A DNA stretch of 64,000 nucleotides, taken from assembly GCF_024700885.2 (NCBI RefSeq), contig NZ_CP117016.1, one strand, 5' to 3'. Position numbers and translations under genes: made by a program. This document shows positions 11,497 through 40,448 of this stretch, in pieces. The DNA is from Escherichia coli (lineage in GTDB: Bacteria > Pseudomonadota > Gammaproteobacteria > Enterobacterales > Enterobacteriaceae). The notes under the pieces are model-generated. The model was not told the DNA's origin. It saw only the letters and a list, made by a program, of their open reading frames with translations, and did no database searches. Every line of letters begins with the position of its first letter. The stretch's first letter is position 1.

Positions 11497-11682
11497 TAGT
11501 GAAAATGTATATTGTACGATCATGATTTGATATGTGATCGTAGCAGTAGTAATTAAGAAACCGCTTTTATGTCAAATGTATTGAGCTGATAATTATCAGA
11601 TCGTCAGGAAAGCGTATTTTGATTAACAGGGGATTACTTAACAATCCCCTTTTTATAAAAAATAATTTGCCTGTTTAACTCT

Positions 11683-13500
11683 TCACTCCTGCTGAGACTG
11701 AATTATTCCTAGTGCGTCATAAATCAGTCTTCTGCGTAGTTTATTGTTTTTATCTGCACCATATAACATAAATATATTTTCAACTTTTTCTTCAGGTGTT
11801 CTGAGATAATGGATAAGAAAGGTTATCATTCCAACACAATGGAATAAAGTGAATCCATCAAACAGGCTTATCAGGTTTCCTTTTTTTTCCCGTGTTGTAA
11901 GTATTTTTTCGCGGGTAAGAATATTTGCCAGTTCATGGGGGGCTGATATGTTTCTGCTGTCTATAATGTCATTTATTTTACCAAGGGCTATATCAACTTC
12001 CTGTAATAGGTTATTTATCATAGCTGAGTGAATGTTATTGGTTTCATGTTCCTGACAGTTTATGAACTTATAAATCATTGAGTTATACAGAAATATTACT
12101 CTTCCTAATAAATATGTGTTTGTGTCATTTTGAAGACAGGACTCTGGGTATTCGTGATCCAGTGAAATAAGGTTAATGGACTCGCCCTGATAAGTCATAA
12201 AATAATTGATGTCATTTAATAATGCTCGGATATTTACATGATTTTTACTGAATTTTATTTTAAATGCTATCTTTAGTATAGCAAACGCGGCAATGATAAA
12301 TCCAAAAGGTAATTTCTCATAGTTCAGTTTATTGATGGTGCGATGAACACTTTCAGTCTTTCCTGAAGTAAGTTGTCTCAAACAGTTAACAAATTCTGTA
12401 TAGCCATTTAAGACATAATGGCATGAAGAATCTTTTAAAGAGTTTTCTATGTTTTGTAATGTGACGCCGTTGTTCAATGTATAAATGTAACCGCCAAAGA
12501 CAATGTTTTCAATCTCAACGACACAATTTATTGTTTTTTGTTCAGGATAAAGATAAATATCAGAAATACTATAGTCTCGTATTGCGTCAATGGCATCCCA
12601 CGATAATGCACTGTCAATTTTCAGTGTATAAAATGGTGAGTTCTCATTAGGAAAGTAATATATGTATTTGTTCAGTATATTCATTACATCTATTGGGTTG
12701 GTTAAATATAATAACTGGCATTCATATTCTGAAACTTCTCTTTCGCTTATCAGCATTTTATATAAAGTTGTCAGGGTGCTTGTTAATGAAGTTCGTCTTT
12801 CGAAAGCCAGTAATATAGTGAGATAATAACATGCAACCTGAACTTTATCTAAGTCAGAAATTATTTTTTCCTTGTCTTCATTACTTAAATAAAGCAGATG
12901 TTTACAGGTTTCTTTGCATGTGTTGATAGTTGCGATAAGTTTTGTTTTTCCTGGTGTACTGTTTTTGCGAATATTACGAATGAATTCATATACGCCATCA
13001 AAGATATCTTTGAAATGCGCATTCGCTGGCGTGTATCCGGATAAACATAACTTAACGTAATTTCGCAGATATGTCCTTGCAGCATGATATATATCATCCT
13101 CATTATCCGGTATCTGAGTGAGAAAAGAATGAATATGATAGTAAAATGCCATCTCATTATCCGGGCGATATGTGTTCCTGATGTCGAGTGCGAGAATCAT
13201 TGGTACAATGTCATTAAAATATTTTTGTTTTATTATTTGATGTGTTTTGTCTGTAAAAACAGAATAGTGCATTAGCTTAACATAGAGATCTTCATATCTC
13301 CTAAATATAACTTTTCGTTGTTCTTTACTCAATACTTGTTCTTTATCAATAATGTTTATTAATTCATCAAACATGTCGCCCAGTGAATGTTGATGTGAGG
13401 AAAAATTTTTAATATTTCGGATGTCACGGCTATTCTGGTTTTTAGCCAGAACACCAAAACATGAAAAGACATCATACATTATAGTGATAAAATTATACAT
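11683..13500 (-). CDS. Hypothetical 605-aa protein, AT-rich orphan gene convergent with integrase
   Basis: Uninterrupted 1.8-kb ORF, very AT-rich compared with flanking int and core genes; no motif recognised by eye. Confidence 0.7.
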   Translation of the reverse strand: MYNFITIMYDVFSCFGVLAKNQNSRDIRNIKNFSSHQHSLGDMFDELINIIDKEQVLSKEQRKVIFRRYEDLYVKLMHYSVFTDKTHQIIKQKYFNDIVPMILALDIRNTYRPDNEMAFYYHIHSFLTQIPDNEDDIYHAARTYLRNYVKLCLSGYTPANAHFKDIFDGVYEFIRNIRKNSTPGKTKLIATINTCKETCKHLLYLSNEDKEKIISDLDKVQVACYYLTILLAFERRTSLTSTLTTLYKMLISEREVSEYECQLLYLTNPIDVMNILNKYIYYFPNENSPFYTLKIDSALSWDAIDAIRDYSISDIYLYPEQKTINCVVEIENIVFGGYIYTLNNGVTLQNIENSLKDSSCHYVLNGYTEFVNCLRQLTSGKTESVHRTINKLNYEKLPFGFIIAAFAILKIAFKIKFSKNHVNIRALLNDINYFMTYQGESINLISLDHEYPESCLQNDTNTYLLGRVIFLYNSMIYKFINCQEHETNNIHSAMINNLLQEVDIALGKINDIIDSRNISAPHELANILTREKILTTREKKGNLISLFDGFTLFHCVGMITFLIHYLRTPEEKVENIFMLYGADKNNKLRRRLIYDALGIIQSQQE

Positions 13501-13640
13501 AACATTCTCCTTTTATTGCACTATATAAAATTTTAACATTATATCATTTTGCTTTTCTGTTAACTGGTTTTCATTTTTGAATCAATATTTTCTGAACAGG
13601 GTAATAGTACACGTATTAACAGATTATGTCAGAAGGCCCC

Positions 13641-14402
13641 GGTGATGCCTTCTGACGATAGATTAATGTTGTATTCTATTGGTATCTGGAGACCATATGG
13701 CAACAGTTACAGTATATTCTCCCCGCTGTAATTCCTATAAAGTGTACCGTTATGATCACAGCACCTCAGATCATGAGCGTTTCCAGTGCTAATCCTGCAA
13801 ACGTGTATTTCAACTGAATTACATCTACGAAACCCGAAAACCAGGCATTAAAGAGCAAATTGTTGAAATGGTTCATAACGGAGCCGGGGTTCGCGATAGC
13901 TCCAGAACGCTGAAGGTGGATATCAACACCGTCATTCTCACTTTAAAAAACGCTCACCACGTAAAGTAACCATATCTCCAGCCGCCAGTGTCGATGTGGC
14001 ACTTATCTGTGAACTTGATGAACAATGGAGTTTTGTCGAAAACAAAGCTCGTCAGCAGTGGCACTGGTACGCGTATAAGACCAAAGCTGACGGTGTGCTG
14101 GCTTACACTTTTGGTCCTCGCACTGATGAAACATGCCGTGAGTTGCCGGAATTCCTGAAGCCATTCTCCGCAGGCATGATAACCAGAGACAACCGGAGCA
14201 GTTATACCAGAGAAATGCCACAGGATAAGCATCTTGTCGGCAAGATATTTACCCGGCGCATTGAGCGCAACAATCTGACACTTCGTACTCACATCAAACG
14301 ACCTGCCCGGAAAACGATTTGCTTTTTACGCTCCCTGGAAATTCACGAAAAGCCATTGGTTCATTTATCGAAAACACATGTACTACTGACAGGAGTCATT
14401 AC
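13641..14402 (+). mobile_element. IS1-family insertion sequence, divergent, probably degenerate
   Basis: Left end ggtgatgcc.. resembles the IS1 inverted repeat and right end ..ggagtcattacc resembles IS1 IRR; InsA-like start MATVTVYSPRC..HERF.C is interrupted, and the InsB-like ORF (13996..14433: ELDEQWSFVENKARQQWHWYAYK..FTRRIERNNLTLRTHIKRPARKT) is present. Confidence 0.65.
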
Positions 14403-14599
14403 CAGGGCCTCTTTTGCTGTTTTTTTGCCATGAATGATAATGAGAATCGACAGCGATAAGGGAAAAGTAAAATAACACTAATGCTGTCGTTTTCTATCAT
14501 ATTGATTTTTAATTATTTATTGTCTTTTTTCTCAACCCATTTTTTTACGCAGACAAATTTACCTGGGGAATACAAACTGTAACGACAGTTCACCACACT

Positions 14600-14908
14600 A
14601 TGGGGGATAAAATGCCAGATCAATCCGGACACTGCAGGACTCCTTCACGCATCTTACGGATGCCTGAACTGAGCCAATTGTTAGGTATATCTCGTTCGAC
14701 AATTTACGAAAAAATGAATCCGTTATCGAAATACTACGATGCAACCTTCCCCAGGCCGGTACGTCTTGGTAGTGGTTCTGTGGGCTGGCGTTCATCAGCT
14801 ATTGACGAATGGCTTACTTTACATACTGTACCTGCCAGATCAGCAGTCAAAGGTGTTAATGACGAAGTGAGACATACGCTTTCTTCAGATATGACCATGA
14901 GCAGATAA
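14600..14908 (+). CDS. alpA: AlpA-family phage regulatory / excisionase-like protein
   Basis: RILRMPELSQLLGISRSTIYEKMNP..YDATFPRPVRLGSGSVGWRSSAIDEWL matches the AlpA/MerR-like HTH signature; located downstream of int as in CP4-57-type islands. Confidence 0.8.
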   Translation: MGDKMPDQSGHCRTPSRILRMPELSQLLGISRSTIYEKMNPLSKYYDATFPRPVRLGSGSVGWRSSAIDEWLTLHTVPARSAVKGVNDEVRHTLSSDMTMSR

Positions 14909-15009
14909 GTTTTTGTCATCACGTGATCACCTCAGGAGGAAAAAGAAGCATAAGAACAATTTAGCCAGAAGTTTAATTGATAAACAGAATTTCCAGCATT
15001 CATTGTTGA

Positions 15010-15345
15010 AAGAGCAGCTATTGTCGCTATTGTCGCTATTGTAGCGGTAATTGCTGCTATAACCGAAACGTATTACGAAAAAGGAAGCATTTATGCCTTA
15101 CATCAAACCGGATATGCCGTATTCAGTATATGCATGACCATCAATGATAGGGAAGGCAATAATTAAAGCTCAATACAATAAACAAGTACCTCTGACTCTG
15201 GTTGCAATGTCAGTATTAACAGCGATGTCAATTGCCTGTCAGAATCAGGTTGACGTATGCAGTCCCAGAAATTTACGTGGGGCCGTTAATATTTACACTA
15301 TGGTTCTGGAGAAAGGGAAAAGACCGGGGGAAAGGTATTAGTGAA
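15010..15345. repeat. Partial tandem duplication of the yfjI-like 5' region
   Basis: agcagctattgtcgctattgt..gctgctat at about 15013 recurs at about 15489; the 65-aa ORF 15144..15341 (VPLTLVAMSVLTAMSIACQNQVDVCSPRNLRGAVNIYTMVL) parallels residues ~38-75 of the 483-aa protein (APLAMVATSALTAISIACQNQIDVCRPGNLHGPVNLYSLIL). Confidence 0.7.
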
Positions 15346-15541
15346 ATAATTTCCGGAGGTATTAAGAATGAGAAATATGAATGATATTTCGTGGTGAATA
15401 ATACAGTCTTCACTGAATTAACCTTATCGGTTTATTAAACATCAGATCTACAAATGCTCTGTATTTCTCAGAGCATCAGGTCTGAATAGCAGCTATTTTC
15501 GCTATTGTAGCGGGATTTGCTGCTATTTTACTAACCCATTA

Positions 15542-16993
15542 ATGAAAAGAGAGGCTTTTATGTGCTTACTTGCACCAGAAAATCCTTATCCGATATATGC
15601 ACTACCACCGCTGGTGAGAAATGCAATAATTGAAACTCAAAAAAATACACAGGCACCTTTGGCTATGGTGGCAACATCCGCATTAACAGCGATCTCAATT
15701 GCCTGTCAGAATCAGATTGACGTGTGCAGACCTGGAAATTTACATGGGCCTGTTAATCTTTACTCTCTGATTCTGGCTGATTCCGGTGAAAGGAAAACGA
15801 CCGTGGATAAAGTGTTTATGAAAGCATTTTATCTCAGGGATGAAGCCCTGGCGGATGAATACGCGAAACTGGTTGAGAATTACAGTACAGAAAAGGAAAT
15901 ATGGGAGCAAAAACAAAAAGCGCTGGAATCAAAATTTCATAAAGAGATTCGTGCCGGTAAAGATTACAAGGCAACAGAATCAGAGCTTGAAACGCATCTG
16001 AATAAACCTCCTGTTCCGCCGCAGATACGTCGAACAATTTTTAATGAGACAACGATAGAGGGAATGTTAAAATATTACTCCGATAGCAATCGCTCTTTTG
16101 CTCTTGTATCCAGTGAAGGGGGGGTGATTTTTGACAGCCGGGCCATGAGTAAACTGGGAATTATTAACACTTTGTGGGATGGAGGTTCTCTTTTCATCGA
16201 CAGGAAATCATCTCCCGGAATTAATTTGAAGGAGCCAAGACTGACGATATCGGTGATGATTCAGCCTGATGTTTACCACAAAGGTTTTTGTACGCGAAAA
16301 AAAGAAATTGTGAAAACGTCAGGACATCATGCAAGGTTTTTGATGTGTCAACCAACATCAACGCAGGGGACAAGGATAATAACCGGAGATAATTATTCAT
16401 CACAGTATCAGGATTTGTTTGAAGAGAGGATCAATGAGCTTATTGATGAAAGTCTGGCGATGAGTGGTGAACGACGTTGCCTTCACTTTTCTCCTCAGGC
16501 TGCCAGAATCTGGACGGATTATTACAATGATGTGGAATCGAAGCTGGGGGGATTGGGGCCTTTAAGACATTGCCGGGAATATGCTGCTAAAAATGCAGAG
16601 TATATGGCAAGACTGGCAGGACTTATTTACCATTCGAGCGGTGAAGAGGGGGAGATTTCCCCTTACACTGCAGAAATGGCGAGAGAATTAGCAATATGGT
16701 ACGGTAATGAGTATGTGCGGTTGTCTAATCCGTTAACTTTTGACAACTCTGCCCTGACCGTACCTGTGCGACTCATTCCAGAGGAGCTTGAACTTTTCAA
16801 CTGGATAAAAAGCTATTGTATTGAGAAGGGGATCCTCTGTATGAAAAAAAATGATATTTTACAGCGTGGTCCGAACCGTTTCCGGAAAAAGGATAAAATC
16901 AACTGGTTACTGGATTTACTGTATGAACAAAACAGAGTTGTACCGGTTATTGAGGGAAAAACGTTGTGTGTCGCACCTAACTTTGACCTCTGA
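15542..16993 (+). CDS. YfjI-like DUF3987-family protein (island replication/primase-associated)
   Basis: 483 aa; gene order int-alpA-this-yfjJ-like parallels CP4-57 intA-alpA-yfjI-yfjJ; family assigned from context and memory, not from a search. Confidence 0.6.
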   Translation: MKREAFMCLLAPENPYPIYALPPLVRNAIIETQKNTQAPLAMVATSALTAISIACQNQIDVCRPGNLHGPVNLYSLILADSGERKTTVDKVFMKAFYLRDEALADEYAKLVENYSTEKEIWEQKQKALESKFHKEIRAGKDYKATESELETHLNKPPVPPQIRRTIFNETTIEGMLKYYSDSNRSFALVSSEGGVIFDSRAMSKLGIINTLWDGGSLFIDRKSSPGINLKEPRLTISVMIQPDVYHKGFCTRKKEIVKTSGHHARFLMCQPTSTQGTRIITGDNYSSQYQDLFEERINELIDESLAMSGERRCLHFSPQAARIWTDYYNDVESKLGGLGPLRHCREYAAKNAEYMARLAGLIYHSSGEEGEISPYTAEMARELAIWYGNEYVRLSNPLTFDNSALTVPVRLIPEELELFNWIKSYCIEKGILCMKKNDILQRGPNRFRKKDKINWLLDLLYEQNRVVPVIEGKTLCVAPNFDL

Positions 16994-17813
16994 ACGACTT
17001 AATCGTTGAGTACATATAGTCTCCTCTGCTACTTGCGGAGGAGACTAATGTCTTTACCATGTCAGCGTTGTATTAGAAAACTCTGGTACAGGTCAGTCAG
17101 TAAATATAACTGGTGTAACCACTATTTACTATTGGATAGAGTGTTGCTCAGGATATTGTCGGCTTTAGTCTGAGGTGAGGTGGGGCCTTCATTGTTTTCG
17201 TGTTCAATAAATAATTTAGGTTAATTAGTATTATTAGTGGAAGTTATGTGATCTGTTATGTTGTCTTGTACGCACTTAACACTGGTTACGTACCGGAACA
17301 CTATTAGAGTATGTTATGGCTCTGTTACAGTTTATAGGTATGAAAAAATATAATCTTTCCTGTATGAAATAATATTCTTATGGTGTGTGGGGTATGGTCT
17401 GTATACCATCATTTTTATGGTGAAGTTAAATATCTGTAGAGGCCTTAAGCTGGGTCGCTGTTTTTACTTAATGGTACAGAAGTATTAATAGCGGTGTTGC
17501 CTGTGGCTACCCGATACTGGCTTTTGTGAATGTCAGATTACTTCCTGTAAGTGATTGAATGGTACTTCCTTAAACTCAATTCTATGAGGTGTGTTTTTAC
17601 CATTGTAATTCGTACTGGTCCTCAGTTTAAGTGAGTCTTACTGTACTCTGAAATATTACCTCTTTGGAGTAATGAGGTAATACGAAACAGTTTTATCAGG
17701 TTGTCTGTGCTGCTGGTTACCTCGTTTATTAATGCCGCGGTACGGCGTTTCTGTACTCTCAGTATTTATGTAATTCCACCTTCCTGTAACTTTTATAAAG
17801 TAAGGACTATAAA

Positions 17814-18377
17814 ATGTATAATGCTAATCCCAATTACGAAATGGACTTCATGATTCTGAAAGACGTGAATGAACACATGGAAGGTCTGTTTCAACGTTTT
17901 TCTAAACTGTTACCTTTCAGAATTGATTTTGCCTACAGGAAAGACACGCCCAGTTTTGGTCATTCCTGTAGGCACAGTATGTGTATTGAAATGCACCGCT
18001 TACTTAGTGAAACCCAAACGATGCTGGCGGGATATTACTGGGTAATGGAATATACGTCAAACAAGGGACTTCATATTCATTTTATCGGCTACTTGGATGG
18101 GCAACGTCACAAGAAATTTTATCGGATATCCAGGCAACTGGGAGATATCTGGAGTCGGATCACGGAAGGGGAGGGTTATTTTCACCTGTGCAGTACTAAA
18201 GACAAATACCCGGTGCGTATCGATCACGTGATTCACTATAGTGATAAGTCTGCGGTAGACGGTTTACGTTACGCCCTTAGCTACCTGGCTAAACAGGATC
18301 AGAAAGAACACGGTATTATTCTGGGCCGTAGCAGGCTTCCCGAAAAAAGCAACCGGGGCCGACCACGACATAACTGA
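17814..18377 (+). CDS. YagK/YfjJ-like (inovirus Gp2-type) protein
   Basis: 187 aa; ..YYWVMEYTSNKGLHIHFIGYLDGQ.. resembles the YagK/YfjJ family found after yfjI in P4/CP4-57-type islands. Confidence 0.5.
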   Translation: MYNANPNYEMDFMILKDVNEHMEGLFQRFSKLLPFRIDFAYRKDTPSFGHSCRHSMCIEMHRLLSETQTMLAGYYWVMEYTSNKGLHIHFIGYLDGQRHKKFYRISRQLGDIWSRITEGEGYFHLCSTKDKYPVRIDHVIHYSDKSAVDGLRYALSYLAKQDQKEHGIILGRSRLPEKSNRGRPRHN

Positions 18378-19039
18378 ATTACAGTTGTATTAGGTATTAA
18401 AATTAAGTTTCTGTAAGTTGTTGGGAGGTGCTTGAGTTAATAGGCAGAAGAGGGCGGGGCGCTTTGTCATCAGTGTAGGGGACCCGAATTTCTGCCGTGG
18501 TACCTCAGTGGATCGGATACAGGTAACGAATATGGTTCATAAATCTGACAGTGATGAATTAGCTGCACTGAGGGCAAACATAACTTGAAGCTTATGGGAT
18601 TGAATGGCGACGTAAACCGCAGAGTCCTGTGCAGTGCGTTTCCGTATTATCCACGGATGAGAAAGTTGCGTTATTTTGTCGACTGTTTCGCGGGCGTGAT
18701 GATGTATGGGCCCTTCGATGGGAAAGCAAAACCAGCGGCAAATCAGGGTACTTGCGGGCCTGTGCTAACGAATGGCAGCCGGGAATAGCGGTAAACTCCG
18801 GATAAAATGTGGGGACTGCGCTCACCGTCAGTTGATCCCTGTATCTGATCTCATCATCTACCACTACACGGTTTAACGGGGCCGCGTCATCTCGGCGTTG
18901 CCCGATAAATTCTTTTCTACGTATAATAACCAGAATGAACGTGTAAAACACCATAGTATTCAGAACTATAAACATCGAAACCTGCCATATTGACTAGAAT
19001 AAATGACCTTATTTTTACTGAAATTTAAGGAGAACACCG

Positions 19040-22000
19040 TTGGAAGTAGAAATGTGGGATGGTGGCTTACAAGAACAGGAAGTATTGGCTATCGAGAAAA
19101 TAAAAGCTGCTTTTTCAGTCAACGTATCTAAGCCTGACAAGCCTTTCCGTAGCGGTTCAATTAGTGAGCAGCTAAAAAGCTATGGTTTTATCGGCAATGA
19201 AATGTTCCCTTGGAAAGGTTATGCAGGTTTTCGATTTGTTGAGGCAAAAAAAGAGGGGGAATTCGATTTAGTTATTGTAACACACTGCAACGTGATCATT
19301 GTTGAACTGAAAGACTGGAACCATCAGCCTGTAACCGCACGCGGAGATACTTGGTTTAAAGGTGATAAGAACATGGGGCGCTCGCCAGTAAGCGTGACTC
19401 GTAGCAAAAAATTCATGCTGGACAAAAAACTCAAGCGTCTGGTAGACCGTTTTACGAACAAAGGCTATATCCCGATTGTTCATTTTTTTGTTGTGATGAC
19501 CGGCAATGCAGATTTCAGCGCGCTGCCGGAGGAACAACGGCGCCATACGATCTCGTTAAAAGATTTCCTGAAGTTTGCCGATCGCGGGAGCTTCAATAAC
19601 TATTTCAAACCGCACCCAGCTACCAAGGTTCTTAACAAGGATTTCCATCTTTTCGATGATTTGTTCCTAGGGCCTCAGACGGCACCAAAAGCCTTGAGAG
19701 TTAATGGCTATGAAGCTAATGATATGATTTTCGAACATCCTAAAAAGGTGTATCGAGAATATCTGGCAAAATCTGAGATATCAACGAACAGCGAAGCGCT
19801 ACTCAGAGTATGGAATTTTAGAAATATAACGGGAACGAAAGCGAATACCCCGGAAGGACGAGCTCAGATTGTTTCACGTGAGCGCGAAGTGTTACAGCAC
19901 ATCAATCACCAGAATCGTGACCTGTATAACCACTGTCTCAGGTCTTTGACGAGTTTTCAGAAAGACGAGGTGACGGCCGAGTATAGCGAAGTCTACGAAG
20001 TTCCGCCGGGTCATGTCCGGTTTAATGAGTTTATCGGAAAATATGGTAAGAACTTTTCTGATATGGACCGCTTGAATGTGGTGAAACTGCTCATTGCAAA
20101 GTTTAGTGATCTCCATGAGATGAAAATTGCGCACAGGGATGTCGCCGATCACAGTCTGTGGATTTCACCTTCAAAAGAAGTTGCTCTTTCGAACTTTATT
20201 TCGGCTTACCACCAGCCAGCCGGAACGGTTGGCGATTACCGTAAGCTTTTATCCGTAGGTGCAGTCCACGTAAAAGACATGCTTGATAAGGGCGAGCTTA
20301 CGCCTTTTCAGCAAGATGTTCATACTCTGGGCCTTGTCGCCTGGCACTTATTTAGCGGTATGCGCATGTCGCCAAAGAGTCTGGAGAAAGTACAGGACAA
20401 CATGCTAAACAGCCAGCACTGGTATTCATCTGTATTACGGGATGCCGTTGCCGCAAAATTCACTTCTGCAACAGAATTCTTTGATGCCCTGAAACAAGCC
20501 GAACCTGCTGGCAAGGATATTCCAACATTTGATGATACTGAGCTTGACCCTTACCGACATGCTATCAATCACGCTCGTCAATACCCGGAAGACGATGGCT
20601 TTCAGTTTCAGGTCGAAACAGTCGACAAAGAAGTCTATATCTCGAAAGGAAGGCTCGTGAAGGCTTGGCTGAATGTTGGGGGACAGGGATACGATCCGTC
20701 AATTAATTTCCAGGTTCTGAAGTTTTTAAAGCAGGTTGAGCGGCTTTCTTCAGTTAAAACAACGTATCTACCTCAAATTCGTGAATTCGGTATCGCATCA
20801 AAATCATCAAGCCTATATATGGTCACGGATCAGGTACAGGGAGAAACCTGGGATAAAATAGCGGTCCCCGATGATGAAAAAATCGACCTCATTGGTAAGT
20901 TTGTCGCCGCCGTTGAGCACTTACATGGTCTGGGTGTTTCTCACGGGGACATCCACCCTGGCAATGTGATATTTGAGACACAGAGCCGTTTGCTTTTTCT
21001 CATCGATATCCCCGATTTTTCACCGTCCGGTGACGAACCTAAAAATCACAGTTACAGCCCTGAATACATTGATAATTGTACTTCTTTTGAACGTGACAAC
21101 TATGCAGTGATGAAGATGTCCTGCGAGTTGCTAGGCATGTCATGGGGGCTGGAATCAGACATTTATCCGACAATCGCGAATGCTATCCGAGCAGAGCTGG
21201 AAGATCCGGTTTTTGGGTTTAAGGATTTAGGCCGCTTTAAAAAAGCGATAGATAGTAATGACCTGGTGCCAGAACAAGACCTGATAGAGATTACTGCAGG
21301 AAATGCCGATGAAATAATCTCTATTCTGCCTGATAACGGGCATCTGTATGTCAAAGTTAAGTCAAATCCTAAAGCGCCAGCTGAAGTAAATGTGACTTTC
21401 TCTGGGATTGGTGGCAGTTTTACTGCGGTGTTCAACAAAGATCAGAAGACGCTGGTTCATGGCTTCAGGCCACGGGCTCGCGTCACAATTCGTAAGCAAG
21501 ATATTGATGAAAGCCAGTTCGAAATTGATACTGGTATCAAGATTATTCCCGGCAGTCCGCAGGATCTGTCGGCGTTGACAGTATTGCTTAATGAAGAAGA
21601 ATCTTTTGCGCGGGCAATCGAGTTGATTGCCGCAACTGAAGATGTTCAGGTACAAGAGCCACTTACGCTTCAGCTAAAAGATACCTTTGCAAGGCTTGAT
21701 AAGCAGACGCTTGAACCTTCTTTAAGAGAAGTGCTGGAAATCCCAACAGTGAAACTGTGGCGCGCCATTCTGGATACTGAAACAGAATCTTATCCAAACA
21801 TTGAAATCAGCGGTGAAGTGGTCCCGGTTGCAGATGCTCATGGAGAGCTTCTTCTCCCTTACTCTGCTGATGTTGATCCACTCGGTGCTTTCAGAAGTAG
21901 TGATGAAGTCGAAGCCTTACAGGTCGATCAGGAAGGTGTTGAGCGATTTATTGGTGAAGTGTCACTTAAGAAGTCAGAGCTCAAAGAGATTCGTCTTGTC

Positions 22001-39682: not shown

Positions 39683-39753
39683 AACCCTTTAGCTCAGTGG
39701 TAAGAGGACTCATAATCGCTTGGTCGCTGGTTCAAATCCAGTAAGGGCCACCA
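39683..39753 (+). pseudogene. Degenerate tRNA-Ile2/Met-like sequence (CAU anticodon loop), probably a pseudo-tRNA
   Basis: aaccctttagctcagtggtaagagg-actcataatcgcttggtcgctggttcaaatccagtaagggccacca aligns with E. coli ileX/ileY (GGCCCCTTAGCTCAGTGGTTAGAGCAGGCGACTCATAATCGCTTGGTCGCTGGTTCAAGTCCAGCAGGGGCCACCA) but has acceptor-stem mismatches and lacks about 5 nt of the anticodon stem. Confidence 0.6.
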
Positions 39754-40351
39754 TCACACACTGCCACTGGCCCATTGCGCCATGCCCGGCACATATCAGT
39801 CACAGAGCCTTTCGGGGATAATTTGCAGAGTGGTCTGGCTGACTTTCTCTGTAGGCAGATCGTTCCCGCTTGATAGCTCATCCCCCAAAGAAACGTCACG
39901 ATATTTGGTATTTTCAAAATTCAAAAAGAAAACCCGCAGAGTGGCAACAGAGATTAAAAAGTTTGAGAAACGCGATCTGGCACAGGCGGTGATTGGTGTT
40001 GGAGTGATGGTAGATTTTATCAGCCGGATAATGTCGGTTCTGGCTGATAGCTGGGGTTGTTGGTGTGGTCTTCCTATTGATGAAAAAACAAGCAATTACT
40101 TGGCATATTATCTGTAACACTTTAAAACTGTTAAGAAGATCACAATTCATTATGTTTATTATTGTCTGGCCGGAGGGATATTTGTTAAAAAGTGCGCCGT
40201 GTGGTGAATCCCCCTGTGCGGTGGGGCGACTGGTGTACATAGCATTTATTATGTTATGAGCGAAGCCTACGCGGGTTCAGTGACACCGACTGAATTCACC
40301 GGGAGGCACCCGGCACCATGCAACAGACGCAAGTTAGGCTAAGCCTTATAC

Positions 40352-40379
40352 CCCTGTAAGTTTTTTACAGGGTTTTTTT
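40352..40379 (+). terminator. Rho-independent terminator-like hairpin
   Basis: ccctgtaa-gtttt-ttacaggg followed by ttttttt. Confidence 0.6.
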
Positions 40380-40448
40380 GTGCACAGAAAACCCCCAGCT
40401 AGGCTGGGGGGGCCGGAAAGCTTTCAGCTTTGAGCCAGTTATTAAAAC

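Follow-up and report, generated by a model that had tools for sequence, protein, structure and literature searches.

The gap between the yfjI-like and yfjJ-like genes, at positions 16994-17813 of the 64,000-nucleotide stretch of Escherichia coli DNA analysed here (hereafter the window), is best read as the putative non-coding control region of the yfjJ-like gene, which encodes an HUH-type nuclease. Within it a single AT-rich box (17213-17244) would be the cognate cis site of that gene, acting as an operator or promoter and possibly also as a nick site. Sequence comparison shows the box to be deeply conserved; it was previously unannotated, and it is probably the docking or start site of the yfjJ module. 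An earlier note on this DNA had missed it, and this single-copy box is the real signal in the gap. The rest of the gap is spacer and leader.

Genomic Setting

The window carries an SpLE1/OI-43-type island of E. coli O157, and SpLE1 of strain Sakai is collinear with it over positions 10059-18864. Along the window the integrase is followed by a 605-aa protein, an IS1 remnant, an AlpA-type regulator, the yfjI-like gene, the gap and the yfjJ-like gene (Table 1). The 605-aa protein beside the integrase (11683-13500, minus strand) had no match in Pfam, PHROGs, or PADLOC. That the genes flanking the gap are related to replication, as the earlier note had proposed, was borne out by the DUF3987/PHROG 'DNA helicase' assignment on the left and the YfjJ-like (Rep-like HUH) protein on the right; NCBIfam and PADLOC contained no model for YfjI or YfjJ.

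The counterparts of the gap-flanking genes in Sakai are ECs_1303 and ECs_1304, which are followed by ECs_1305 (iee). Only the first ~330 nt of iee are left in the window, and Mokosh MkoA comes next: the 1656-aa NERD-kinase-helicase protein encoded at 19040-24010 on the plus strand matches it over the full length (PADLOC PDLC03921, E = 0). The position behind yfjJ is occupied by defence or DNA-handling cargo that differs between elements: iee in Sakai, Mokosh in the window, and restriction-modification genes in Erwinia and in one metagenome locus. A literature search for the term 'TOTE conflict system' found nothing. Within yfjI a 48-nt indel relative to Sakai was located at 16380-16429, and it is likely a recombination junction because the identity to Sakai falls from 99.65% on its left to 97.3% on its right.

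The gap and its flanks were 100% identical to many EHEC chromosomes, and the gap of strain EDL933 differed from that of the window by one base. The gap was present in 1586 of 5426 complete E. coli genomes (~30%), with no annotation inside it among the matches listed. Data from K-12 (a sigma-S ChIP peak at yfjJ and a yfjI NAD-RNA) were considered not to be transferable to the window gap because the CP4-57 and CP4-6 loci have neither the long gap nor the box; the gap behind K-12 yfjI is only 152 bp.

Table 1. Coordinates of the features in and around the gap (window positions).
Feature	Position	Strand	Basis or remark
yfjI-like gene, left neighbour	15542-16993	+	Pfam DUF3987, E 5e-84; PHROG 2373 'DNA helicase', E 2e-62
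Sense start inside yfjI	16713	+	EDL933 1063268, identical flanks; 281 nt before the gap
Terminator-like 13-bp stem-loop with weak T run, past the yfjI stop	17017-17047	+	Only in relatives with yfjI upstream
AT-rich box AATTTAGGTTAATTAGTATTATTAGTGGAAGT; core 17218-17235 = AGGTTAATTAGTATTATT	17213-17244	+	Cross-genus conservation; single copy
Variable T/G-rich, C-poor spacer	17245-17472		Mean pairwise identity 0.39-0.77; 219 inserted alignment columns
Proximal yfjJ leader, neutral-level conservation	17473-17813	+	Identity 0.76-0.97 per 40-nt bin
Weak anti-Shine-Dalgarno/Shine-Dalgarno pairing, TCCT 17782-17785 with AGGA 17803-17806	17782-17806	+	Not above shuffles here, z 0.6
yfjJ-like gene, right neighbour; HUH nuclease with RGRPR tail	17814-18377	+	Motifs, weak Pfam and fold matches
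Antisense promoter and start inside yfjJ, aimed into the gap	18025-18060	-	TTGACG 18060-18055, 17-nt spacer, TAATAT 18037-18032
iee remnant (IS-excision enhancer, PrimPol-helicase)	18532-18864	+	Sakai annotation ECs_1305; SpLE1 homology stops at 18864
Rfam matches outside the gap	8403-8596 (-), 40169-40383 (+), 39683-39750 (+), 59235-59314 (-), 60751-60830 (+)		Gathering score

The AT-Rich Box

A protein search for YfjJ-like homologues retrieved loci from Erwinia, Citrobacter, two Yersinia, Limnobaculum, Rouxiella, C. braakii, and one further contig, and at all eight of them a stretch of 350-1450 nt without called genes precedes the yfjJ-like gene. These upstream stretches could not be aligned with the window except for AATTAAGGTTAATTARTATTATTA-N4-AAGT, which corresponds to 17213-17244. 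The 20-mer of the box was matched with 1-4 mismatches in six of the eight non-E. coli loci; the matches with 1-3 mismatches (five loci) were reached by 0 of 2000 shuffles, and 0.8% of shuffles did as well as the 4-mismatch match in Limnobaculum. The remaining two loci carry degenerate copies (shuffle fractions 0.06 and 0.12).

Scanning metagenome and viral contigs with the exact box pattern yielded 127 loci, most of the metagenome loci being chosen by the exact core, so that the conservation of the core there is by construction. A YfjJ-like protein was encoded in 56 of the 127, and in every one of these 56 the box lies upstream of the gene and co-oriented with it, 150-1160 nt from the start codon. 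One AT-rich group among them encodes proteins that share ~30% identity with the nearest Enterobacterales query homologues; these proteins, too, end in GRPR. The other 71 are either contig ends or the chance 18-mer matches to be expected when a collection is this large. A scan of the genome collection with a single protein returned only close relatives, and a scan of viral contigs with an alignment returned 2 loci. In Erwinia, Citrobacter, Yersinia, Klebsiella, and Limnobaculum the yfjJ-like gene is accompanied by an upstream, co-oriented box. The box appears to head the yfjJ module across the lineages examined, being degenerate in two loci and absent in Plesiomonas. The 64-kb window contains one copy of it.

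No conserved single-stranded hairpin was found at the box: box-centred 64-nt folds from 9 lineages had energies of 0 to -3.9 kcal/mol, no better than those of shuffles, with one exception (locus L019, -7.1 kcal/mol, z -2.8). The AATTAA-GG-TTAATT dyad at the box is weak and its left arm is poorly conserved. Since no conserved single-stranded hairpin exists, the box would be a linear duplex site, and it does not resemble the classical rolling-circle arrangement with the nick exposed in a loop. It contains -10-like words on both strands (TATTAT on the plus and AATAAT on the minus strand). No conserved -35 element was found at the box, where position-weight-matrix scores were modest (5-9 bits) on both strands, and a simple promoter scan of the gap gave no plus-strand promoter. 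TATTAT is replaced by TGTTAT/TTGTTA in three diverged lineages, which would cripple it as a -10 element and counts against that role. The box also contains TAGTATTAT/TAATATTAT, which we take to be an 8/9 match to the CRESS/geminivirus nonanucleotide TAGTATTAC/TAATATTAC and which by our own estimate would arise by chance in ~8% of cases; the resemblance is only a lead.

In relatives whose YfjJ is ~62% identical (L113, 10533-10557; L067, 905-1121) a tandem repeat of CTGTAATT with 3.1 copies follows directly past the box. These relatives have TGTAA-N8-TGTA units after the box, with a copy number that varies between contigs, and an additional 71-aa ORF between the box and yfjJ.

Conservation Within E. 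coli-Type Gaps

The alignment used for the conservation analysis contained 22 distinct versions of the E. coli-type gap. The first 200 nt of the gap, including the stem-loop past the yfjI stop, accompany yfjI and are absent where another gene precedes. The block at ~17193-17245, which includes the box, is well preserved (identity 0.86), and the spacer that follows is the least conserved part of the gap and carries lineage-specific terminator-like hairpins on the plus strand (17380-17409 and 17441-17456). In the proximal leader the identity over 17553-17792 was 0.83-0.92 vs 0.90 at the third codon positions of yfjJ; its conservation is at the level that linkage alone would produce. Among the 22 versions no conservation above that of synonymous sites was found outside the box. 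The palindrome at 17654-17682 in the leader is decaying, with substitutions that are not compensated. Because one relative locus (L006) keeps the gap and yfjJ and has an unrelated gene in place of yfjI, the gap travels with yfjJ and not with yfjI.

Several genera (L012, L016, L019, and L131) share the word CTATCA(C/Y) in their short leaders, 20-60 nt past the box. An invariant E. coli block AAACAGTTTTATCAGGTTGTCTG (17686-17708) includes TTATCAGG. These words may represent a second shared element, or chance.

Composition, Open Reading Frames, and Repeats

The gap had been described as free of ORFs of 60 aa or more and as T/G-rich and C-poor on the plus strand, and both descriptions held. The longest ORF in 16994-17813 has 55 aa (17006-17173, TTG start), and a search for a conserved small ORF across 16 homologous gaps found none, the positions and lengths of the short ORFs (31-55 aa) varying by strain. 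The plus-strand base frequencies are A 0.254, C 0.155, G 0.218, and T 0.373; the G+T content of 0.591 is reached by 0.7% of the 820-nt windows in the 64 kb, and the skews reach maxima of +0.35 (GC) and -0.26 (AT). The excess of T over A and G over C is not a trait of the family, as the compact leaders of Erwinia and Yersinia are A/C-rich. It persists in the E. coli lineages despite heavy indel turnover, and we infer that this fits strand-biased mutation of a spacer that is transcribed but not translated, or avoidance of Rho-loading sites rich in C.

The recurring motifs listed by the earlier note do occur at the places given for them (17638/17748 and 17541/17780), at a frequency no greater than chance. 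The longest exact direct repeat has 10 nt, compared with a mean of 9.66 in 300 dinucleotide-preserving shuffles, 47% of which equalled or beat it. Tandem Repeats Finder detected no array in the window gap, and the dispersed repeat families in it have two copies each and no more. CTGTA is mildly enriched (7 occurrences vs 2.2 expected, z 3.2, uncorrected for the ~1000 words tested). Repeat searches and k-mer enrichment thus revealed neither iterons nor periodicity in the gap. The motif cttcctgtaa at 17780 is not an iteron and belongs instead to the weak anti-Shine-Dalgarno pairing described below.

Transcription and Leader RNA

In the Cappable-seq data for EDL933 (PMC10469882) an antisense transcription start site at 1064580 on the minus strand, which is window position 18025, is present in 8/8 conditions. 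Its near-consensus sigma-70 promoter, the sequence of which is the same in EDL933 and the window, sits in the part of yfjJ that encodes the conserved GYYWVMEYTSN segment; the -35 element requires the TSN codons and is specific to the SpLE1 lineage. The same data contain a sense start inside yfjI (EDL933 1063268) above the signal-to-noise threshold in 8/8 conditions (PMC10469882), which together with the hairpin at 17017-17047 could give rise to a ~330-nt 3'-end-derived RNA, or to readthrough into the gap. A weak start at EDL933 1064384 (window 17829) was recorded in 2/8 conditions (PMC10469882); yfjJ codons 2-3 (TAT AAT) form a perfect TATAAT, with the start 7 nt downstream (17814-17829). Since no start was detected within 250 bp upstream of yfjJ in EDL933 under the 8 conditions (PMC10469882), any yfjJ promoter must be distal or silent there.

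Searching the whole window at Rfam gathering thresholds gave nothing in the gap, and a search of 14000-20000 at E-values up to 1 gave nothing except a chance miRNA match outside the gap. Elsewhere in the window, matches at gathering score were obtained to Ysr251, STnc100, a tRNA-like family, and two group II intron domains (Table 1). The plus strand of the gap folds no better than shuffles (z -0.09). The minus strand folds better (z -2.25, equalled by 0/100 shuffles), and this surplus reflects DNA palindromes. In eight relatives from other genera the Shine-Dalgarno sequence is strongly paired, in a hairpin before the start codon, with pyrimidines that lie upstream of it; the sequences that form these hairpins differ, and the overall pairing probability of the Shine-Dalgarno sequence was 0.77 for native vs 0.54 for shuffled leaders. 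Beyond this hairpin no shared RNA architecture was found among the compact leaders from other genera.

Two candidates from the literature were rejected. Esr41, a known sRNA of SpLE1, does not belong to the gap since it sits between z1181 and z1182, and AlpA antitermination in P. aeruginosa does not provide a model for the long leader since that AlpA is a different, larger protein which binds GGGACG. The accessible part of the Sakai Hfq-CRAC source places three SpLE1 peaks (EcOnc14, 40, and 41) 20-45 kb from the gap.

The YfjJ-Like Protein

The YfjJ-like protein of the window has 187 aa. It retains the family motifs R-x-D, W-V-x-E, H-x-H, and Y-x-x-K together with a C-terminal RGRPR, which across the family is (R/K)GRPR, and its invariant residues are R36, D38, W76, V77, E79, H87, H89, Y157, and K160. 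Pfam matches to REP_ORF2-G2P and YagK_YfjJ_C were below threshold. The AlphaFold2 model (pLDDT 89) is confident except for the tail. Fold searches returned only weak matches, including parvovirus NS1, AAV Rep, SIRV1 ORF119, IS608 TnpA, and circovirus Rep, and a sequence search of PDB chains found nothing informative. The AT-hook, which reads AT tracts through the minor groove, has RGRP as its core.

No box was found with any of the three tail-less relatives considered (K-12 YfjJ, K-12 YagK, and an Acinetobacter homologue). Box-like matches occur with further relatives that do have the tail, from Klebsiella (5 mismatches) and from an E. coli plasmid (3 mismatches), both figures being raw mismatch counts. 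In a Plesiomonas relative the tail is degenerate (RGRKR) and the box is missing, and in a Moraxella copy an IS occupies the upstream region. Searches for a small rolling-circle plasmid or phage with a YfjJ-like Rep found none, the matches being chromosomes, islands, and large plasmids.

Comparison With Known Systems

The arrangement was compared with five known systems. In Ff phages (f1/M13) a several-hundred-base non-coding stretch with the cis site inside likewise precedes the gene of an 'inovirus-type Gp2' HUH initiator, and its sense strand is T-rich, as in the window gap. The Ff region, however, forms stable hairpins with the nick site in the loop of a palindrome, whereas the window gap has no conserved hairpin; the window protein has 187 aa as against ~410, with a similarity to G2P below Pfam thresholds, and the window element is a chromosomal island and not a phage. 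The common region of geminiviruses and other CRESS viruses combines the nonanucleotide TAATATTAC/TAGTATTAC with iterons and divergent promoters. It resembles the present case in that a short, near-invariant AT-rich sequence is shared across divergent HUH Reps in the intergenic region upstream of rep. In contrast, the window box has no flanking GC-rich stem and differs in the ninth base, nicking by the YfjJ-like protein is hypothetical, and this protein has no SF3 helicase domain.

In SaPI, PICI, and P4 modules a helicase or primase gene is followed by an iteron origin. The window resembles them in that an integrative island carries int, an AlpA-type regulator, and a gene of a helicase family with a non-coding stretch directly 3' of it, but that stretch has no iterons and is linked to the downstream HUH gene. 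The pairs of oriT and Rep-like relaxase on integrative mobilisable elements are similar in that a single-copy conserved site precedes an HUH gene in the same orientation, here on a non-conjugative island; in a typical oriT an inverted repeat lies a few bases from nic on its 5' side, whereas the window has only the weak dyad at the box. Finally, in Pseudomonas islands at the tmRNA site Gp2-like and AlpA genes form a conserved core beside variable defence cargo (bioRxiv 10.1101/2024.08.29.610337). The gene pair is the same, and the cargo at the loci analysed here consists of iee, Mokosh or restriction-modification genes; that study, with which we compared the window by description only, describes no upstream DNA box (bioRxiv 10.1101/2024.08.29.610337).

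Interpretation and Alternatives

According to the reading that we prefer, the YfjJ-like HUH nuclease would dock on the duplex of the box via its disordered RGRPR tail of the AT-hook type, and the box would set the transcription of yfjJ and the downstream cargo by means of its -10-like TATTAT/AATAAT words and of the conserved AAGT that follows closely behind it. The other 570 nt would be a fast-evolving, C-poor untranslated spacer and leader. In this lineage the strong constitutive antisense transcript from 18025 would lower the output of yfjJ further, and weak occlusion of the ribosome-binding site would do so as well. We tentatively put the chance that the box is a duplex docking site of the YfjJ-like protein at the head of a transcription unit at somewhat short of even. 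This is favoured because the box survives amid unalignable surroundings and because it is upstream and co-oriented at all pattern loci that encode YfjJ. A link between tail and box is favoured because the three tail-less relatives have no box and tail-bearing relatives have box-like matches; the RGRKR tail without a box in Plesiomonas was counted against the docking-site reading. We infer that YfjJ itself would bind the box and that a transcript would start there. The argument for binding by YfjJ is one of co-occurrence, and AlpA-type regulators accompany most of the loci too, which counts against it; the missing consistent -35 element was counted against a promoter at the box.

A role of the box as the HUH nick site, that is, as a rolling-circle-type ori or an oriT of the excised island which would use YfjI and, where present, IEE, is doubtful, and it can coexist with a role as promoter or operator, the two functions occurring together in the intergenic regions of geminiviruses and Ff. 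The adjacent gene retains the HUH and the catalytic Y-x-x-K motifs, and the box is single-copy, fixed in its orientation to the gene and flanked by helicase and PrimPol genes. It is moreover near-invariant across proteins that are ~30% identical, as nick sequences tend to be across divergent proteins and the operators of regulators usually are not, and the 8/9 nonanucleotide match TAGTATTAT/TAATATTAT points in the same direction, as a lead only. Of the features expected of an HUH cis site, the gene with a catalytic tyrosine and the conserved, oriented sequence are thus present, whereas a hairpin or inverted repeat is not: no conserved hairpin or cruciform displays the box. The window also has no second (termination) copy of the box, no small rolling-circle plasmid or phage with this Rep family was found, and in its fold the protein matches Rep nucleases only weakly. 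The wider proposal, that the box would be the nick site or origin of an unrecognised small family of HUH-AT-hook initiators which replicate or mobilise excised defence and pathogenicity islands with YfjI and IEE as the replisome, is in our view unlikely. As for the candidate origin suggested by the earlier note, the setting and the existence of a cis element tied to an HUH gene stood, and the repeats, which were at chance level and without periodicity, did not. An origin of the iteron type, to which the replication proteins encoded next to it would bind as in SaPI, PICI, and P4, is very improbable: its position directly 3' of a helicase-family gene follows the SaPI/PICI layout, the relatives with 62% identity have the CTGTAATT repeat (3.1 copies) and the TGTAA-N8-TGTA units of variable copy number past the box, and CTGTA is mildly enriched in the window gap, but the window gap itself has no tandem repeat and no repeat family with at least three copies, it is linked to yfjJ rather than to the helicase gene, and the would-be iteron spacer is its least conserved part.

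The remaining alternatives place the function in RNA. The product could be the minus-strand RNA from 18025, which would cross the start of yfjJ and continue into the A/C-rich minus strand of the gap, acting as a cis-antisense repressor of yfjJ in the manner of an excludon or countertranscript; this is distinctly unlikely. Its start was found in every condition with a TTGACG-N17-TAATAT promoter, the minus strand folds beyond shuffles, and its excess of C over G is as expected for a Rho-terminated untranslated RNA. However, the -35 element is limited to the SpLE1 lineage, which leaves the family-wide long gap unexplained, the gap has no intrinsic terminator on the minus strand, the accessible part of the Sakai source reports no Hfq-bound peak at the gap, and the start lies outside the coordinates of the gap. 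The earlier note's other suggestion, a non-coding RNA locus, or else missed small protein genes, on the sense strand would draw on the two terminator-like plus-strand hairpins of the spacer and the short ORFs, and is highly improbable. Those hairpins are within indel-variable segments and the ORFs differ in position and length between strains, no Rfam match was obtained even at E-values up to 1, the plus strand does not fold beyond shuffles, and conservation outside the box does not exceed that of synonymous sites. In coding capacity, repeats, and RNA structure the gap gives no signal; what the data do show is the box with its linkage to HUH/AT-hook genes, together with the antisense start and the start inside yfjI.

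Implications

The gap touches on the wider question of how islands without phage or conjugation genes replicate, move, and regulate their cargo. It heads a module that includes iee in O157 Sakai and variable defence cargo elsewhere, such as Mokosh in the window. An invariant short site next to an HUH nuclease with an AT-hook tail offers a cheap handle for binding and nicking assays, for reporter fusions, and for the computational detection of such modules. If the box is a promoter or operator only, the gap would be a regulatory region of a common sort, unusual only in how well its operator is conserved. If the reading as an initiator site is true, the IS-excision activity of IEE would be a by-product of its work in replicating the island. 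The Gp2-like/AlpA pair has recently been named as an island core without an assigned role (bioRxiv 10.1101/2024.08.29.610337), and the initiator reading, if true, would cover SpLE1-like elements as well as the Gp2-like/AlpA islands of Enterobacterales and Pseudomonas.
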